A stretch of DNA of 8,213 nt, the filler included, from an uncultured virus (IMG/VR IMGVR_UViG_2124908030_000005) (Duplodnaviria; Heunggongvirae; Uroviricota; Caudoviricetes; Thumleimavirales; Hafunaviridae). It is 4 parts of one record of this genome, joined end to end, with 100 filler letters (N's around TTAATTAATTAA, not from the genome) between each part and the next. Parts side by side here need not be neighbours in the genome. Positions count along the whole stretch, not along the records: positions 2,791 to 5,604 come from IMGVR_UViG_2124908030_000005; 3 more parts are not named here. The stretch is one strand, 5' to 3'. Positions 1 through 7,136 of this stretch are shown here, piece after piece. The number at the start of each line of letters is the position of its first letter. Position 1 is the stretch's first letter. The notes beneath the pieces were generated by a model. It was not told where the DNA came from. It saw only the letters and a program-made list of their open reading frames with translations, and searched no databases. A program made the translations under genes and the position numbers.

Positions 1-1557
1 GCTTGGGTAGAGTGGTCTTGGTCTGGTAGCGAAGTTTACGGCGAGGTTCGAGACCGCTCCAAGGACTCTTTCACTGTTGATGGGAACGAGATCACCGGAG
101 ACGAAGGTGAAAACGTCTACAAAATGGAGGAATACGACACCGACTCGGGAGAGTTTACTGGCCAGATGGTCGGTAAGCCAGAGTCGTCGCTGTCGTCTTG
201 GAACGGGCCATCAGAGAACAGTGACATAGAGCGGGCTGCCCAGTCAATGACATTCGCACGAGACGACGAGCGAGTGTTTTCTGCTTGGAACGGCCTCACT
301 AACATGAGCGAGGAAGACATGGAAGTGTGGGGCGATCACCCATGCTCCAACGCTGGTGTTGACAACGGCGAAGAAATGCGCGACAACACTGGTATGTTGA
401 TGGGTCAAGCCCCGGATGGCTGGAACGAGGAATCCTATCAAATCGCCAATAGAGTTGTCTCGTGGGCGCGTATGCACATGGGAGAACTAGAAGACGGGGC
501 ACGCAGCGGCGGCAGAGGGACCTGCCCATCACACACTGCTGTCCATATGCTGAACCGTGGAATCAACCCGTTCAGCGAGGCCCCTAGCGGCAACCCAACG
601 TTCACTGAGAGCGAGATTGACATTGACGGGGATTTCGCAAAGCATCAAGACGAAGTTGACTCAGTGTACTCCAAGTGGGAAGACGCAGTGAACATGACGG
701 CCTCGCAGCTAGATCGGTGGTCGGACCATCCGTGTTCCAACGAGGCGTCTATGGACCCCAACAAAGTTCGCAAGCGCAACATGATGTTGCTCGAAACGAA
801 CAAGTCTGATTGGGGCGAGAAAGAGGTCAAGGCAGCGAAACGCACGGTGTCTTTCATCAGCCGGATGCGCGGCTCTAGCCCCGATGGTGATGCCAGCGAG
901 GGCGGCAAAGGGTCATGTCCATCTGAGTGGGCAGTGAGCCTGCTCAACTGGGCATACAACCCGTTCGATGGGATGCCGAGTGGTGAGCCTAACCCCGAGA
1001 CTGAAAACAGTGAGCCGGGCGCTCTTACCTTTGCTGCCCGGACGGCAGTTCCAGATAAAGTTGGCATCGGCTCAAACTTTAACGAATATGGCGTCCGAGA
1101 GAACTTCGAGGGCGACGACATGGTTTCAGTTGACGCCGTGTATGAGGCAATGGAGCCGGGAGAACCAGAGGACCGCAATGGCGTTCGCATTACCAAAGAC
1201 TTCCTGCGAAACGTGGCCGACAAGAACTACGAACGCCGCGTTCCGTACATGATGGACCACGACAAAAGCACGCTTTCACAAGTTGGCTTCGTCAAAGACG
1301 TGTGGTTCAGCGAGTCCAAAGAGAAACTGATGGTGATGGCGCGGGCGTTCAACGTAGATGGCTCTGACATCCACAGCGAAGTCGTCAGCAGGTTGCGACA
1401 TGACCCGCCAACGATTCCTGATGGCTCTGTGGGGCTTGGCGAAGACTACGAATACGAAGAAAATGACGACGGCGAAGTGCTGTTCACGGATGGCCGCATC
1501 AAGGAGTTTTCAACGACTCCCTTCCCCGGCGGCTATGACACAGGCGGCATTTACTAG
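1..1557 (+). CDS. Multidomain prohead (capsid maturation) protease, 5'-truncated: DUF2945/Tudor-like domain + 2x DUF3140-like repeats + C-terminal HK97-type protease domain
   Basis: Frame 1 is open from base 1 (AWVEWSWSGSEVYGEVRDRSKDSFTVDGNEITGDEGENVYKM...), so the ORF extends upstream of the Met at 124. The C-terminal part has HK97/herpes-type protease motifs: PYMMDH (His codon 1258-1260), VGFV, DGSVG (Ser codon 1426-1428) and IKEFSTTPFPG. It lies upstream of scaffold/decoration/capsid-like genes. Acidic composition is typical of halophiles. Confidence 0.8.
   Translation, partial: AWVEWSWSGSEVYGEVRDRSKDSFTVDGNEITGDEGENVYKMEEYDTDSGEFTGQMVGKPESSLSSWNGPSENSDIERAAQSMTFARDDERVFSAWNGLTNMSEEDMEVWGDHPCSNAGVDNGEEMRDNTGMLMGQAPDGWNEESYQIANRVVSWARMHMGELEDGARSGGRGTCPSHTAVHMLNRGINPFSEAPSGNPTFTESEIDIDGDFAKHQDEVDSVYSKWEDAVNMTASQLDRWSDHPCSNEASMDPNKVRKRNMMLLETNKSDWGEKEVKAAKRTVSFISRMRGSSPDGDASEGGKGSCPSEWAVSLLNWAYNPFDGMPSGEPNPETENSEPGALTFAARTAVPDKVGIGSNFNEYGVRENFEGDDMVSVDAVYEAMEPGEPEDRNGVRITKDFLRNVADKNYERRVPYMMDHDKSTLSQVGFVKDVWFSESKEKLMVMARAFNVDGSDIHSEVVSRLRHDPPTIPDGSVGLGEDYEYEENDDGEVLFTDGRIKEFSTTPFPGGYDTGGIY
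262..990 (+). repeat. Two tandem ~110-aa protein repeats (DUF3140-like) inside the protease ORF, about 262-597 and 649-990
   Basis: The copies share W-x4-NM, W-x-DHPCSN, GG(R/K)G(T/S)CPS-xx-AV-xx-LN and NPF-xxx-PSG-x-P. Copy 2 (AVNMTASQLDRW...SLLNWAYNP) resembles the DUF3140 consensus as I recall it (VNMTASELEEWL...SLMNWGHDP). Confidence 0.8.
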
Positions 1558-2690: not shown

Positions 2691-2790
2691 NNNNNNNNNN
2701 NNNNNNNNNNNNNNNNNNNNNNNNNNNNNNNNNNTTAATTAATTAANNNNNNNNNNNNNNNNNNNNNNNNNNNNNNNNNNNNNNNNNNNN
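2691..2790. other. Artificial contig spacer (N44-TTAATTAATTAA-N44)
   Basis: 100-nt N run with a six-frame stop linker at 2735-2746, identical to the other two spacers. Confidence 0.98.
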
Positions 2791-3659
2791 TCACGAGCAA
2801 CACTTTCGCTGTATCTCCGGGTCAAAGTCGCGTTCACTGGCACAAAGAACCAGTCTCCGTGGCGGATGATCTTACGGCCTAGCATGGAATCATTGCATTG
2901 CTGATACTGTTCTTGAGTAAACTCATCGGAGTCAACAACAGACATCCAACTGTCGTGAACCTCCGGCGGTCGAAGAAACATCTGCGGAATGATTTTTGGC
3001 TCATCAACAGGAATAGCACTAAGTTGAGTTGCTGTGAGGCGGTAGGCAAAGTATTCTGCTCCGCTTTTCACGCTCTTATCTCGGCCTAGGTAGACACCAT
3101 ACTCTCCGTCATTGACTATCACTAGCGAATCTTCGACATTGTGAGTCTCAGTGACTTCTCCGTTGCGGAAATTATACTCAGGCTGGCCGTAAACATCGGT
3201 GACAGATCGAATGTTGTCATGCTGATTCATCTCGGTTTCAAGGGCAGAAAACGGAAGTTTCCAGTCATAATCGTGGGGAGCAGAACACTTTGCGAAGCCT
3301 GCATTCCAGCACTGCTGATTGTTAATCACCGTGCCATCTGCTAGCCTCACTGCCTCTCTCGTGCTGTAATGCCACAGAGTGCCGGAACCATCTGTACGCT
3401 GGGAGCCGTAGAAGTTGGTTCTTGTACCGTCAACATCTGGCGCTCTGCTTCTACCAAAGGCGTTAGTTTTCTTTTCAGGAGAACCAGTGTAGACAATTGC
3501 CGCTCCGTTCTGATCTCTGTTGTGTGTCGGAAACTTGAGGTTCATCCAAGCGTTTGTGACCTCTCGCTGGCTATTGTAGGACTTCTTGTTAGTTGCGTCG
3601 TAGACTGCGGAGTAATTGTTAGTGTTGCTACTGTCGGAATTGTCGTTGTTAACAGACAT
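2791..3659 (-). CDS. Hypothetical viral protein, 3'-truncated (>289 aa), with LRPPEV...IRHGDWFFVP motif
   Basis: Long ORF from ATG 3659 running into the spacer. The R(Q/H)G(D/E)WFF-x-P motif resembles uncharacterised phage proteins. The track's end at 2739 is the linker stop. Confidence 0.75.
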
Positions 3660-3682
3660 AATGAGTCAAGTCGAACCGCAGA

Positions 3683-3720
3683 GAGTGCCGAGGAATCGAA
3701 CCCCGGAAGGCCAATCACCC
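3683..3720 (-). ncRNA. Mini-tRNA-like element A (acceptor-like stem + T-arm)
   Basis: Minus strand: GGGTG-ATTGGCCTT-CCGGGG-TTCGATT-CCTCGG-CACTC. 5+6 bp, starting 7 nt after the upstream stop codon. Confidence 0.75.
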
Positions 3721-3727
3721 AGTTATC

Positions 3728-3928
3728 TTATTCGACTGTGAAATACTGCTCGTCAGAGTCCTTTGAGGAGAGGTGCTTGATCTCTCCTCCTGCAATTCTC
3801 GCACCCTCCAACTGCATGGCGTGGCGGTAATATAGCCCACCAACGCCTACTTCGTCTTCTCGAACAACAATTTCTAGGTTTGGGTACTGTCCTGCAATGT
3901 GTCGGGCAAGTTGTTGGGCTGGTCTCAT
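3728..3928 (-). CDS. Small hypothetical protein, 66 aa
   Basis: The start overlaps the stop of 3925-4242 (ATGA coupling) and the gene ends just before element A. Confidence 0.7.
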   Translation of the reverse strand: MRPAQQLARHIAGQYPNLEIVVREDEVGVGGLYYRHAMQLEGARIAGGEIKHLSSKDSDEQYFTVE

Positions 3929-4242
3929 AGGTCAACGTCGTCTCGTTCATTCAATGCCTCGTACAAGTCTGCTTGATAACAAGCAAATGCTCTGGCTTGT
4001 CGAATGTCTTTGAACGAAGCATCTTCACCGTAGAATATCTTCCACTCAACAGGCTCTATGTCGCTGTGTTTGATTATCTCAGGATTGTGGTGATAGTACA
4101 TGATGTAGTGTGAGCCATCTACTTGTTGATGGATTAACTCATGCACTTCTGCGTCTGGATTGTTGGCCACTTGTTCTGCGACTCTCTCAGCCGATGTGTC
4201 AATAACTTCACGGTACTCGCTGTAAGTAAGGTCGTCACTCAT
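3925..4242 (-). CDS. Hypothetical acidic protein, 105 aa
   Basis: ATG lies 12 nt after the conserved hairpin of element B. Halophilic composition (MSDDLTYSEY...). Confidence 0.8.
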   Translation of the reverse strand: MSDDLTYSEYREVIDTSAERVAEQVANNPDAEVHELIHQQVDGSHYIMYYHHNPEIIKHSDIEPVEWKIFYGEDASFKDIRQARAFACYQADLYEALNERDDVDL

Positions 4243-4254
4243 GGATTAAACACG

Positions 4255-4320
4255 GCGGAAGGTCGCCACCCAAAGGGAAGCGAGGAATCGAACCTCGCTG
4301 TTACATCACCAGATTACCTT
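4255..4320 (-). ncRNA. Mini-tRNA-like element B (4273-4320) plus conserved downstream hairpin (4255-4271)
   Basis: Minus strand: AAGGTAA-TCTGGTGATGTAACA-GCGAGG-TTCGATT-CCTCGC-TTCCCTT (one mismatch in the outer stem), then T, then GGGTGGCGACCTTCCGC. Confidence 0.75.
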
Positions 4321-4321
4321 A

Positions 4322-4648
4322 CTACATCGGGTCGTAGACTTCTATGATGGTGTGGACATCATCATTCACTCTCAAGATGTAGCGCCTGTTTCGTTGCTCA
4401 AGCACTTCTTGAATGAGAGACGAAGAATCAGCCTCACGAATCGCGTCAAGAATGAGCGGGTCGGGGGCTTTCACCGGGTGGTCAATGGGGTCCATGCCTT
4501 CGATAGCACGAGTTTCATTTTCTAATCCCAGGATTTTCTCACGGGTTTCAACCGGCAATGCTTCTACAAATTCTACTAGGTCAACGTTGAAATGGTGTTC
4601 AAATTCACTGATACCGTCAACTTCGTTGATTTCGCCAGGAACAATCAT
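4322..4648 (-). CDS. Hypothetical protein, 108 aa; paralog of 5348-5604
   Basis: Acidic ORF flanked by elements C and B. It aligns without gaps to the ORF at 5348-5604. Confidence 0.8.
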   Translation of the reverse strand: MIVPGEINEVDGISEFEHHFNVDLVEFVEALPVETREKILGLENETRAIEGMDPIDHPVKAPDPLILDAIREADSSSLIQEVLEQRNRRYILRVNDDVHTIIEVYDPM

Positions 4649-4661
4649 TGGAGTAAACTCA

Positions 4662-4717
4662 GCGGTAGGTCGCCACCCAACAAGTAGCAGGGAGTCGAAC
4701 CCTGCACTAACTACCCG
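4662..4717 (-). ncRNA. Mini-tRNA-like element C (4681-4717) plus conserved downstream hairpin (4662-4678)
   Basis: Minus strand: CGGGTA-GTTAGT-GCAGGG-TTCGACT-CCCTGC-TACTTG (6+6 bp), then TT, then GGGTGGCGACCTACCGC. It begins immediately after TAA 4718-4720. Confidence 0.78.
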
Positions 4718-4891
4718 TTACTCAGTCTGCGCTTCTGCTATCGCCTCGGCAATCAACTTGTTGTAGCGCCGGACAAACTCGGCCTCTGTGTCGTAGTCTA
4801 AGTCAAGTTTAGCCACTCCAAGACTCAGGTGTTTCTTGCCGTCGTGTAATTCTTCTGCGGCTTTGTCGCTAATGAGGTTGAGATCAGACAT
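4718..4891 (-). CDS. Small hypothetical protein, 57 aa (not in the ORF track)
   Basis: MSDLNLISDKAAEELHDGKKHLSLGVAKLDLDYDTEAEFVRRYNKLIAEAIAEAQTE*. The ATG lies 2 nt after the stop of the upstream gene and the ORF fills the gap up to element C exactly. Confidence 0.75.
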   Translation of the reverse strand: MSDLNLISDKAAEELHDGKKHLSLGVAKLDLDYDTEAEFVRRYNKLIAEAIAEAQTE

Positions 4892-4893
4892 TG

Positions 4894-5274
4894 TTATTGG
4901 TCAAAGAACAGCGAAAGGTCGTCTTCTGGGTTGTACTCCTCGTTTTTGAGGGAAGCGTAAGCACCAGCCTCGAAGCACGTCCAGAAGTCTTCTTCTTCTG
5001 CGGCGGCTCGCTGGAAGGCCTGATGCCGTTCCTCTGAGCATTCTTCTTCGAGATAATCTTCAAGCGCCCACCAGAATTTCTTGGCAGATTGAGATTCATT
5101 GATGGCAACCCGAACCTCTGGGTACTCATGCAGAGCCATCTCACTCTCTACCGGGTCAATGTCGTCCGCAATAAGGTGCCGTGGCTTTGTGCTACGGAAA
5201 GCATCGAAGCCTGCCGCGTATGCTGATTTCATTGCTTCTTCGTCAGTCTCGCCGAAGTTGTAACTCATAGACAT
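4894..5274 (-). CDS. Hypothetical acidic protein, 126 aa
   Basis: ATG at 5274 (MSMSYNFGETDEE...) lies 13 nt after the hairpin of element D, matching the spacing at elements B and C. Preferred over the track's start at 5286. Confidence 0.8.
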   Translation of the reverse strand: MSMSYNFGETDEEAMKSAYAAGFDAFRSTKPRHLIADDIDPVESEMALHEYPEVRVAINESQSAKKFWWALEDYLEEECSEERHQAFQRAAAEEEDFWTCFEAGAYASLKNEEYNPEDDLSLFFDQ

Positions 5275-5287
5275 TGTAATAACCAAA

Positions 5288-5346
5288 GCGGTAGGCCGCT
5301 ACCCAGTGAGTGCCGAGGAATCGAACCCCGGTTCACCAGTCACTCA
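5288..5346 (-). ncRNA. Mini-tRNA-like element D (5307-5346) plus conserved downstream hairpin (5288-5304)
   Basis: Minus strand: TGAGTG-ACTGGTGAA-CCGGGG-TTCGATT-CCTCGG-CACTCA (6+6 bp), then CT, then GGGTAGCGGCCTACCGC. 24 nt (5308-5331) are identical to 3683-3706. Confidence 0.8.
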
Positions 5347-5347
5347 G

Positions 5348-5604
5348 TTACTCAGAAACCCGGATGATTCTATGAAACTCACCCTCGTAGAGATGGATGT
5401 ATTCTTCATCTCGCTGGTCAAGCACAGAGCGGATGAAGCCATGAAGGGATAGCCCAGCCACAAAATCCTCTACCAAGTAATTTCTCGCAGACATTGGGTG
5501 GTTAATCGGACGCAAATCTTCTTTTTCTCGCTGCTCATTCTCATACTCAACAAGATTCCGAGATCGTCTTCATCGAGGGCTGCTATTTTTTCTTCTTTGG
5601 TCGG
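5348..5604 (-). CDS. 5'-truncated hypothetical protein, paralog of 4322-4648, with an apparent frameshift near 5560-5565
   Basis: PTKEEKIAALDEDD/RNLVEYENEQREKEDLRPINHPMSARNYLVEDFVAGLSLHGFIRSVLDQRDEEYIHLYEGEFHRIIRVSE*. One missing base joins the two frames, possibly a read error near the contig end. Confidence 0.7.
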
Positions 5605-5704
5605 NNNNNNNNNNNNNNNNNNNNNNNNNNNNNNNNNNNNNNNNNNNNTTAATTAATTAANNNNNNNNNNNNNNNNNNNNNNNNNNNNNNNNNNNNNNNN
5701 NNNN
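5605..5704. other. Artificial contig spacer
   Basis: N44-TTAATTAATTAA(5649-5660)-N44. Confidence 0.98.
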
Positions 5705-6500
5705 ATGAGCAAACACTTGAACCAGAAAACTACTAAGACTACTTAACCCGCAATTGGATTATAACGAATCTCCCAGTTATCAGGTGAATTATTTACTAAG
5801 GTGTCAGCCGGCGGGTCCGACATAGTGGTTTAAAGACCTATTTGCACCGTATTACTGGTATTAACGAATTCACATTACTATGTCCCCCGTTCGTGGGGGC
5901 AAAACTGTAGTGTGATAGGTGGCGATTTACTTCCCTGGACAAGCGGAGATGGGAAACAACCCGTGCCCGTCTATTTCAACAACAACACATACCCCCCTTT
6001 AATATATAAAACCCACTGCTTTACAAAAACGGTTGCACAAGGCCGCTACTCCGGGTCTATGGCATTTGAGCAAATAAACCCGGTAAATATGTCCGGGTCT
6101 TAGAACGGGCTATATGCGGGGTAATCCCGGTCCAGTGAGATGGAATGACTTGCCGCTCAAACCCCAAAATTCTGGGGGTACAGGCTCTCTACCCGGTAAT
6201 CTATGGGCCGCGATTATAGAGATTATATTAGATACGTTTTGCGTGGGCCTTAGAATACGTCTAAGTAGATTTAACAGTCTTATCTCGCCATATCGGGCTA
6301 AACGGGGGCTATGGACCGGGATTTTTGCCTGTATTTAGATCAGCGCGTGCGCGTGGCCGGTGTGTGGTGTGTGCTACAGTGAATAACGGCCTATGTGGGG
6401 GCTTGAGCATGATTCTAAGCCGTTGTATGCACCTAGGGGGTAGCACATAACTTATCGCTGTATGAAGCCGCTTAGAACGGACACAGTATCCTATCCGACA

Positions 6501-6533
6501 TAGACGGGGGCTAGGCGGGGGCTAGACGGGGGC
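6501..6533 (+). repeat. 3 x 11-bp tandem repeat TAG(A/G)CGGGGGC
   Basis: TAGACGGGGGC TAGGCGGGGGC TAGACGGGGGC. Confidence 0.9.
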
Positions 6534-6690
6534 ATAATGTCATACTACAAACACGTACAAGGCCCCCCGCATAATGTCGGGGTTTTGACAATAGGCCGAC
6601 GAGGGAACCATCACAGGATATGCAAGTCAGCACGCAGAATGCGGTGAGAGACCAGATTTTCGGGGTCTATCGAGTCGCGGGCGCTGTGAG

Positions 6691-6712
6691 CGGGGGCTAG
6701 ATCGGGGGCTAG
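6691..6712 (+). repeat. 2 x CGGGGGCTAG (12-bp period)
   Basis: CGGGGGCTAG-AT-CGGGGGCTAG, with the same core as 6501-6533 and 6303-6311. Confidence 0.85.
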
Positions 6713-7036
6713 CCAGTTTCAGTGCCATTGAGCGGGCATTTTGGGGGCAATTTGGCGCTCTGAGGCCCAAATGGCAAAGAAATCCATGCTTGAGCGGAAA
6801 ATGGGGCCAAAGATGGGGCTTATAGCCTTTGCTGGCGGCCTTATAAAGCCTGAGCGGAGTATATAAAGACGGCATCTTCGTCTTACCCCAGATCGCGCCC
6901 CAGAAGTGTCAATGAGAACGGCGATTGACAAAAGCGGGGTAAATTGTTCGCTTCTCCAACGAACACTGTGTGATGTTGTCTAAGAGGTTTAGAAACACAA
7001 GCATCAGCCACGTTATGTGTGTGCGAACTGGTAGAT

Positions 7037-7136
7037 NNNNNNNNNNNNNNNNNNNNNNNNNNNNNNNNNNNNNNNNNNNNTTAATTAATTAANNNNNNNN
7101 NNNNNNNNNNNNNNNNNNNNNNNNNNNNNNNNNNNN
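7037..7136. other. Artificial contig spacer
   Basis: N44-TTAATTAATTAA(7081-7092)-N44. Confidence 0.98.

Follow-up and report, generated by a model that had tools for sequence, protein, structure and literature searches.

Folds that resemble parts of a tRNA are already known to act as RNA processing signals, and the t-element of haloarchaea is one of them. In the available text of PMC4326828, processing of this element by tRNase Z is described to yield the 5′-end of the 5S rRNA, and in Haloferax cells RNase P and tRNase Z are stated to act on t-elements placed on either side of a CRISPR RNA (crRNA), indicating a portable signal; the accessible parts of PMC3296008 and PMC7714728 agree on the tRNase Z step at the 5S rRNA. 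This mini-tRNA upstream of the Haloferax 5S rRNA had been cited, in agreement with these sources, by a first-pass annotation of the DNA studied here, an 8213-base stretch (the window) from an uncultured virus of the Hafunaviridae (IMG/VR IMGVR_UViG_2124908030_000005). Here, we analyse four short elements of the window, E1 to E4, that occupy gaps between protein genes of one operon. We regard them as viral copies of the haloarchaeal t-element, and in our estimation there is a probability of roughly 55% that host RNase P and tRNase Z cut a long message into separate mRNAs at them.

Other systems share single aspects of this arrangement. In mitochondrial tRNA punctuation and the plant t-elements, as far as covered by the available text of PMC1920247, folds located between coding regions set the mRNA ends via RNase P and RNase Z, and each upstream mRNA has its 3′-end at the stop codon or close by, as proposed here; that system, however, operates in organelle genomes and employs mostly full tRNAs, whereas here a virus carries a dedicated mimic devoid of arms. 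The MALAT1 mascRNA/MEN beta family (RF01684), the closest match in Rfam, is a tRNA-like fold serving solely as a cutting signal for RNase P and RNase Z, but it belongs to a eukaryotic nuclear long non-coding RNA and keeps an anticodon-like arm. Viral transcripts with tRNA-like folds are known from murine gammaherpesvirus 68, whose TMERs are cut alongside the fold by host tRNase Z; in this animal virus they are RNA polymerase III transcripts that release microRNA hairpins and do not punctuate mRNAs. The first-pass annotation had doubted that the elements had been described in haloviruses before. Consistent with this doubt, our literature search, with the main paper on R4-like Streptomyces phages and the primary t-element papers outside its reach, found no description of them in viruses. 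In PMC7230728 the tRNA-like sequences of the HF1 group are said to need study. What is new is the repeated viral use of the signal between protein genes, its coupling to a leader hairpin, and its recurrence in viruses of two domains.

Four separate pieces, with N runs around TTAATTAATTAA at the joints (2691-2790, 5605-5704 and 7037-7136), were stitched together to give the window, and neighbourhood between pieces carries no meaning. All four elements are carried by piece 2 (2791-5604), where they are found at four junctions of the operon; at the remaining two the genes are closely spaced, overlapping by 4 nt in one case and lying 2 nt apart in the other, and there is no element. They follow a shared plan on the coding (minus) strand, namely an acceptor-like stem stacked on a 6-bp T-stem, a TTCGAYT loop and a short linker. 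E1 (3683-3720) comprises a 5-bp acceptor-like stem (GGGTG/CACTC), a 9-nt linker with TGG, the 6-bp T-stem and a TTCGATT loop, and it extends from 7 nt past the stop codon of the gene at 3728-3928 to 23 nt before the ATG of the gene at 2739-3659. E4 (5307-5346), assigned to repeat family D2, is built likewise with a 6-bp acceptor-like stem (TGAGTG/CACTCA), a 9-nt linker with TGG, a 6-bp T-stem and a TTCGATT loop, and is 85% identical to E1 over 47 nt. E3 (4681-4717) starts directly at the stop codon and has a 6-7-bp outer stem (CGGGTA/TACTTG) with two G-U pairs, a linker of 5-6 nt without GG, a 6-bp T-stem and a TTCGACT loop. E2 (4273-4320) is a weak copy, in which the outer stem of seven positions (AAGGTAA/TTCCCTT) contains one internal T-C mismatch and a 15-nt linker with TGG precedes the 6-bp T-stem and the TTCGATT loop; its T-arm hairpin is present in the minimum free energy fold.

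Most of the anatomy that the first-pass annotation had proposed was confirmed by this inspection. The same fold is present in the four gaps it had named, on the coding strand, and the T-stems read on the minus strand as given there (CCGGGG/CCTCGG in two copies, GCGAGG/CCTCGC and GCAGGG/CCCTGC). A TGG motif in three of the four linkers was likewise found, in E1, E2 and E4 but not in E3, and the claimed start 0-7 nt past a stop codon corresponds to measured distances of 7, 1, 0 and 1 nt for E1 to E4, with the next ATG 23-32 nt after the end of the element. The outer stems were as proposed for E1, E3 and E4, which pair fully and continue into the T-stem, but not for E2 owing to its mismatch. The statement that all sizeable gaps carry an element applies to the minus-strand piece at 2791-5604, but not to piece 1, where a 113-nt gap (1558-1670) is devoid of one.

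A search of the window for GGTTCGAYTCC with at most one mismatch returned four matches, all on the minus strand and all in the four gaps, against 0.33 expected from shuffled sequences, none of which (0/200) reached four. ARAGORN called no tRNA gene in the window, and Rfam gave no tRNA match and sub-threshold scores only, these being mascRNA-menRNA with 19.9 bits on E3 (26.9 bits among the actinophage copies described below) versus a gathering cut-off of 42.5, and tRNA-Sec with 18.4 bits versus 47. Hence, neither program explains the elements, as the first-pass annotation had asked to be confirmed, and two candidates were rejected: a canonical tRNA gene, which would display a cloverleaf with D and anticodon arms, and membership in mascRNA-menRNA. 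When the copies were folded singly, none had a noteworthy energy (z between +1.06 and -2.18). The support for the fold therefore rests on the comparison with relatives and not on thermodynamics.

For this comparison the covariance model R1 was built from six viral or metagenomic copies of equal length in an ungapped MAFFT alignment, since MAFFT alone staggers the 5′ acceptor strands. With R1, E1 scored 50.7 bits (E 3e-11), E4 51 bits and E3 19.6 bits (E 0.02-0.03), and E2 was matched by its T-arm only (4281-4297, 18 bits). When applied to the ungapped six-copy alignment, RNAalifold recovered the proposed fold unaided, with double changes in 8 of the 11 pairs. Among 20 matches aligned by R1, 99.1% of the cells are paired, compared to 61.9% after shuffling and 48-58% with slid partners, and the covariation score amounts to 0.943 versus 0.19 for shuffled alignments. 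Extending the set to 49 matches (47 distinct) gave 99.6% paired cells versus 61.5% and 43-53%, respectively, and a score of 0.890 versus 0.174. The observed values of both measures were reached by none of 500 shuffles. Changes on both sides occur in 9/11 pairs of the model-aligned matches, and the acceptor pairs show double changes in 5/5 with 100% of their cells paired. The TTCGA loop is present in 48/49 matches and the linker GG in 47 of 48 full-length rows. Most family members had first been detected via the T-loop and the downstream block, not via the acceptor stem, and R1 matched none of the true tRNAs over its full length. In tRNA, G18 and G19 of the D-loop dock on the T-loop; by analogy, the linker GG may be their counterpart and form the tRNA elbow. 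We regard the mini-tRNA fold and its kinship to the haloarchaeal t-element as secure. The structural part of the first-pass annotation, a mimic of the tRNA top half without anticodon arm, with a GG linker, on the sense strand and behind stop codons, is thus strongly supported by covariation and position.

The same alignment bears on a role in DNA, in which the elements would mark cassette boundaries, that is, short homology patches that allow orphan genes to be shuffled, comparable to the promoter-early stem-loop cassettes of T4-type phages described in the available text of PMC2839356. This precedent, the 85% identity of E1 and E4 between otherwise unrelated flanking genes, the absence of a family assignment for the flanked genes, and the occurrence of the module beside unrelated genes in many contigs would all fit such a function. 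However, stems that differ in sequence while pairing is kept are the mark of an RNA fold and provide poor homology for recombination. In addition, the pair cells comprise 512 Watson-Crick pairs, 14 G-U pairs and 2 unpaired cells; read from the opposite strand, the G-U cells would turn into A-C mismatches, and pairing is therefore better on the sense strand. Together with the strict strand bias (4/4 in the window, 10/10 and 7/7 in the two actinophages discussed below), this renders cassette boundaries an improbable explanation.

We then compared the viral elements with host sequences. Although no host copies had been used to build it, R1 matches 72 of 121 haloarchaeal genomes at E <= 0.001. Seven host matches from six genomes were fetched, the criterion being that the same score occurred more than once in a genome, and all seven are located between the 23S and 5S rRNA genes and end 2-3 nt before the 5S rRNA. 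These copies score 32-36.5 bits; one model hence detects both viral and host elements. As in the viral copies, the haloarchaeal t-element combines an acceptor stem of 5 bp and a T-stem of 6 bp with a TTCGAYT loop and a YGG-containing linker of ~10 nt, and the downstream RNA begins 2-3 nt past the acceptor 3′ strand. The window elements share with it the acceptor stem coaxial with the T-arm and the lack of an anticodon arm, with one mismatch in E2, as well as the canonical T-loop and GG linker, E3 being the exception for GG. Unlike the t-element, the viral copies are located between protein genes, several per operon; they start at stop codons, and what lies behind them is an mRNA leader instead of the 5S rRNA; in line with this difference in location, Rfam detected no rRNA in the window. 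The signal may also be used by host mRNAs, as the six best-scoring chromosomal matches do not adjoin rRNA. Three of them, t-element-like copies of 48-51 bits in the haloarchaeal chromosomes G042, G105 and G092 (loci L175, L176 and L177, each at 1501-1538), immediately precede genes encoding proteins with a Tat-signal-like N-terminus. The genes beside the top chromosomal matches gave no informative family, DUF1102 and FkbM methyltransferase being the only assignments.

Considering this host precedent, the following sequence of events is proposed. The operon would be transcribed as one long RNA. A cut by host RNase P at the 5′ edge of each acceptor stem would leave an upstream mRNA that ends at the stop codon or 1-7 nt beyond it. 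Host tRNase Z would cut just past the acceptor 3′ strand, and the downstream mRNA would consequently start with UGGGU and a small hairpin ~30 nt before the AUG, which might shield the new 5′-end. The by-product would be a mini-tRNA of ~40 nt. In this scheme all of the cuts are inferred, as are the shielding of the 5′-end by the hairpin and what becomes of the excised RNA; that a decoy RNA might be released, as the first-pass annotation also considered, is pure conjecture. The element-bearing gaps measure only 68-79 nt and thus offer no space for a promoter.

The predicted leader is recognizable in the window as a second conserved block, TGGGTRGCGRCCTWCCGC, that directly follows E2, E3 and E4 (three matches versus 0.04 expected; 0/200 shuffles reached three), and E1 has no TGGGT block behind it. 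Behind E2 the block (4255-4272, minus strand) consists of TGGGT and a hairpin (GGCG, 6-nt loop, CGCC), ending ~12 nt before the ATG at 4242. The corresponding blocks behind E3 (4662-4679, minus strand) and E4 (5288-5305, minus strand) contain TGGGT with the hairpins GGCG/CGCT and AGCG/CGCT, respectively, and in the 4-bp stem of the latter a G-to-A change is compensated by a C-to-T change. A TGGGT block with a small hairpin is also present behind the elements of relatives. When compared by eye, the post-element block UGGGUGGCGACCUACCGC and the first ~17 nt of haloarchaeal 5S rRNA (..AGGCGGCCAYAGCGG, L196-L201) are alike at ~10 of 17 positions. On the basis of this weak likeness to the 5′-end of the 5S rRNA, the halovirus module may have been captured from the host 23S-5S spacer.

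Scanning with R1 revealed relatives in all six Hafunaviridae genomes examined and in contigs of hypersaline metagenomes. The five Haloferacalesvirus genomes contain two full matches each and the Mincapvirus HRTV-11 one full and one partial match, and the positions of the elements are conserved across the six genomes. In HRTV-5 and HF2 the two copies are unannotated, are located on the sense strand near the early end, and are followed by a perfect hairpin and then by GTGACACCG-ATG. The pattern of T-loop and downstream block was found in three IMG/VR contigs and, among 14 matches, in three haloarchaeal genome contigs; with a relaxed pattern, about a dozen of the 119 metagenome matches listed were family members, the others being mostly bacterial tRNAs or chance matches. 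From these copies a family plan emerges. A stop codon, in most cases TAA, lies 0-1 nt ahead of the element. The acceptor measures 5-7 bp, and its 5′ strand is followed by a linker of 8-11 nt that includes YGG, by the T-arm (6-bp stem, TTCGAYT loop) and by the acceptor 3′ strand. After another 1-3 nt come TGGGT with the small hairpin, then ~10 nt and the start codon. Of 23 elements inspected, 12 begin within 1 nt of the stop of a frame that is at least 60 codons long.

Apart from these copies, a longer unannotated tRNA-like element was observed in HF2 (AF222060.2, L030, ~19660-19740) and in HRTV-5 (~56940-57025; L008 28840-28925). It is located between two small genes; its acceptor (GCGACC/GGTCGC) comprises 6 bp, its linker measures ~50 nt and its T-arm is imperfect. 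ARAGORN did not call it.

When E4 was compared to phage genomes by blastn, unannotated intergenic matches were obtained in Streptomyces and Mycobacterium phages. The Streptomyces phage Caliburn (NC_028892) harbours 10 full-length R1 matches on one strand within 41-48.6 kb, and in the 8 kb examined (L164, 41077-49121) 10 gaps measure 74 nt or more, 9 of which contain an element on the sense strand. Behind each of these stands A-CTG(G/A)G, in most cases accompanied by a hairpin, and a Shine-Dalgarno-like GAGAGGA or GAGGAG precedes the start codon. Seven full-length R1 matches on one strand were found in the Mycobacterium phage Konstantine (NC_011292; L165, 41737-47779), and both sets are confined to one small-gene region each. 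None of the actinophage elements was called by ARAGORN, and the mascRNA match mentioned above was the only result with Rfam. The phage phiC31 contains no full-length element, and its published early 5′-ends therefore provide no test. It is conceivable, although at somewhat less than even odds, that archaeal haloviruses (Hafunaviridae-like) and actinobacteriophages (Streptomyces Likavirus, Mycobacterium Konstantinevirus) alike punctuate early small-gene operons with a mini-tRNA and a leader hairpin, from which host RNase P and RNase Z would generate many stable monocistronic mRNAs, comparable to tRNA punctuation in mitochondria except that the signal would be a minimal one made for the purpose.

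The number of copies per genome (4 in 1.7 kb here, 10 in Caliburn) could also be taken to mean that the excised mini-tRNA is itself the product, a small RNA that might carry CCA or tRNA modifications and act as a decoy or sponge for tRNA-binding enzymes or defences of the host, the cutting of the mRNA being secondary. The conservation of the T-loop (48/49) and of the GG (47/48) is indeed stricter than a cleavage signal may need. Yet the five acceptor pairs vary freely and there is no common acceptor sequence or identity element. Moreover, the exact placement between a stop codon and the next leader fits punctuation, a placement that a free-standing RNA gene does not need. We therefore hold an RNA product of this kind to be hardly likely.

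The favoured interpretation, cutting of the message by host enzymes, is linked to an observation made with HF2. According to the available text of PMC8707807, HF2 transcripts extend up to 35 kb in reverse transcription PCR but are mostly 1-2.5 kb on Northern blots, and the authors suggest processing. Cutting of a polycistronic RNA would explain this gap in size. The same text reports the primer extension 5′-end T-4384, interpreted by the authors as a transcription start with a class I alpha motif upstream.

Several findings nevertheless weigh against cleavage at the elements, or against the strength of its support, and T-4384 is the first of them. This 5′-end falls at the linker GG of the HF2 element at 4375-4414 and corresponds to neither the predicted RNase P site nor the predicted tRNase Z site. 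Furthermore, the HF2 and HRTV-5 copies are preceded by promoter-like motifs, with AAAGACT...TTTAA upstream of both HRTV-5 copies, and in Caliburn a conserved block, GTGTG..ACCTTCGCA, stands ahead of most copies. A cut at the stop codon would leave an mRNA without a 3′ untranslated region (UTR). Within the window, E2 and E3 score poorly with R1, and E3 has no GG. R1 favours paired positions and served both to pick and to align the matches, so that the pair counts are biased in favour of the structure. A clear short acceptor stem is missing at some of the loci selected by the block (L034/L108/L136, second copy; L111; L122). Finally, other predicted tRNA-like elements of H. volcanii were reportedly not cut in vitro in a study by Holzle et al. 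(2012, Biochimie). The interpretation given by the first-pass annotation is thus supported in part: the structure stands and cutting by RNase P and tRNase Z has its precedent upstream of the host 5S rRNA, but T-4384 lies off the predicted sites.

T-4384 and the motifs upstream of it bring in an explanation without any cut, in which the element would be a promoter-proximal or 5′-UTR module: transcription would start at or inside it, and the T-arm together with the next hairpin would form a leader that stabilises the mRNA or tunes its translation. The position of T-4384 just downstream of a class I alpha motif, the AAAGACT...TTTAA motifs ahead of both HRTV-5 copies, the conserved block ahead of most Caliburn copies and the near-constant spacing of 28-32 nt between the post-element block and the start codon are all in agreement with such a leader. 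A transcript beginning at T-4384, however, would not contain the 5′ strand of the acceptor stem, although the acceptor strands covary (5/5 pairs, 100% of cells); hence, longer RNAs must also matter, and the conflict stands. T-4384 may be a start, a processing product or a stop of the reverse transcriptase. In the window the gaps begin 0-7 nt past stop codons and have neither an A/T-rich box upstream of the elements nor HF2 motifs, and the host copy of the fold is a processing site and not a promoter. Considering both sides, we deem a 5′-UTR module unlikely.

The HF2 intergenic repeats, which are A/T-rich promoters with alpha, beta and gamma motifs, resemble the elements in being conserved, intergenic and present in the same virus family, and the alpha motif adjoins one HF2 mini-tRNA. 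None of them was found in the window: of the class I/II repeat motifs, CTAAAGACTTAGAA has no match at up to three mismatches, and CTTTAAGT has two one-mismatch matches, both outside the gaps and fewer than expected by chance. The first-pass annotation had seen no TATA box in the gaps, and this holds for HF2-type promoter repeats throughout the window, but not entirely for A/T-rich sequence, since A/T-rich hexamers are located 5-13 nt ahead of three start codons. The available text of PMC8707807 does not mention the minihelix fold. Two further candidates were dropped, namely a G+C-rich promoter at -30 of leaderless mRNAs, for which there is no precedent, and a role for splicing endonuclease and a viral RtcB ligase, as no bulge-helix-bulge motif was seen by eye.

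The stem-poor loci named above, together with L009, L010 and L122, where long linkers contain an extra hairpin, indicate that the family grades from near-full tRNA-like forms to minimal ones. Such longer tRNA-like variants (HF2 ~19660-19740, L009, L010 and L122), as well as the true and aberrant tRNA genes carried by related viruses, could suggest that the elements are remnants of decayed viral tRNA genes without present function. Decay would not be expected to retain the same two arms and lose the other two in every copy, with compensatory changes, or to conserve the positions in six Hafunaviridae genomes, and we disfavour this explanation as exceedingly improbable.

If the favoured reading, punctuation by viral t-elements, is true, tRNA punctuation extends from organelles to archaeal and, apparently, actinobacterial viruses, and the elements, ~40 nt in length, would be compact natural parts with which several genes could be expressed, or guide RNAs released, in haloarchaea. 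They offer an answer to the question of how archaeal viruses turn very long transcripts into short mRNAs of Northern blot size, as raised for HF2 in the available text of PMC8707807, and this answer can be tested with existing Haloferax enzymes and reporter systems. In addition, 5′-ends determined by primer extension in such gaps may represent processing or stops of the reverse transcriptase and not transcription starts.

The operon itself (2739-5515, minus strand) comprises seven same-strand genes in the list of open reading frames (2739-3659, 3728-3928, 3925-4242, 4322-4648, 4718-4891, 4894-5274 and 5348-5515), none of which could be assigned to a family: Pfam gave none at its cut-off, and PHROGs a single weak match. 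In a blastn search of 50,697 phage records the region 2791-5604 had no DNA match, and no relative of the 306-aa operon protein was found in IMG/VR. The sequencing runs listed for this region comprised three DNA runs of a single study and none of RNA. The genes at 4322-4648 and 5348-5515, located upstream of E2 and E4, respectively, are paralogous to each other, sharing 36% identity over 53 aa (E 5e-10). The gene at 5348-5515 may be shortened, since an in-frame stop is found upstream of 5515.

Piece 1 (1-2690) contains head genes encoding a prohead protease, a scaffold-like protein and a gpD-like protein, and its DNA is 68-75% identical to Hafunaviridae such as HRTV-15, HRTV-10 and HRTV-5. In the 477-aa product of the open reading frame at 1-1557 (plus strand), the prohead protease domain occupies residues ~293-476. 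Fused to it is a long N-terminal region, within which a W..D/HPCSN-like motif is repeated and which weakly matches DUF3140. The piece at 5705-7036 is mostly non-coding and displays A/T-rich patches and repeated motifs of the GGGGGCTAG type (e.g., at ~6500-6535 and 6690-6715); it could represent an origin or a regulatory region.

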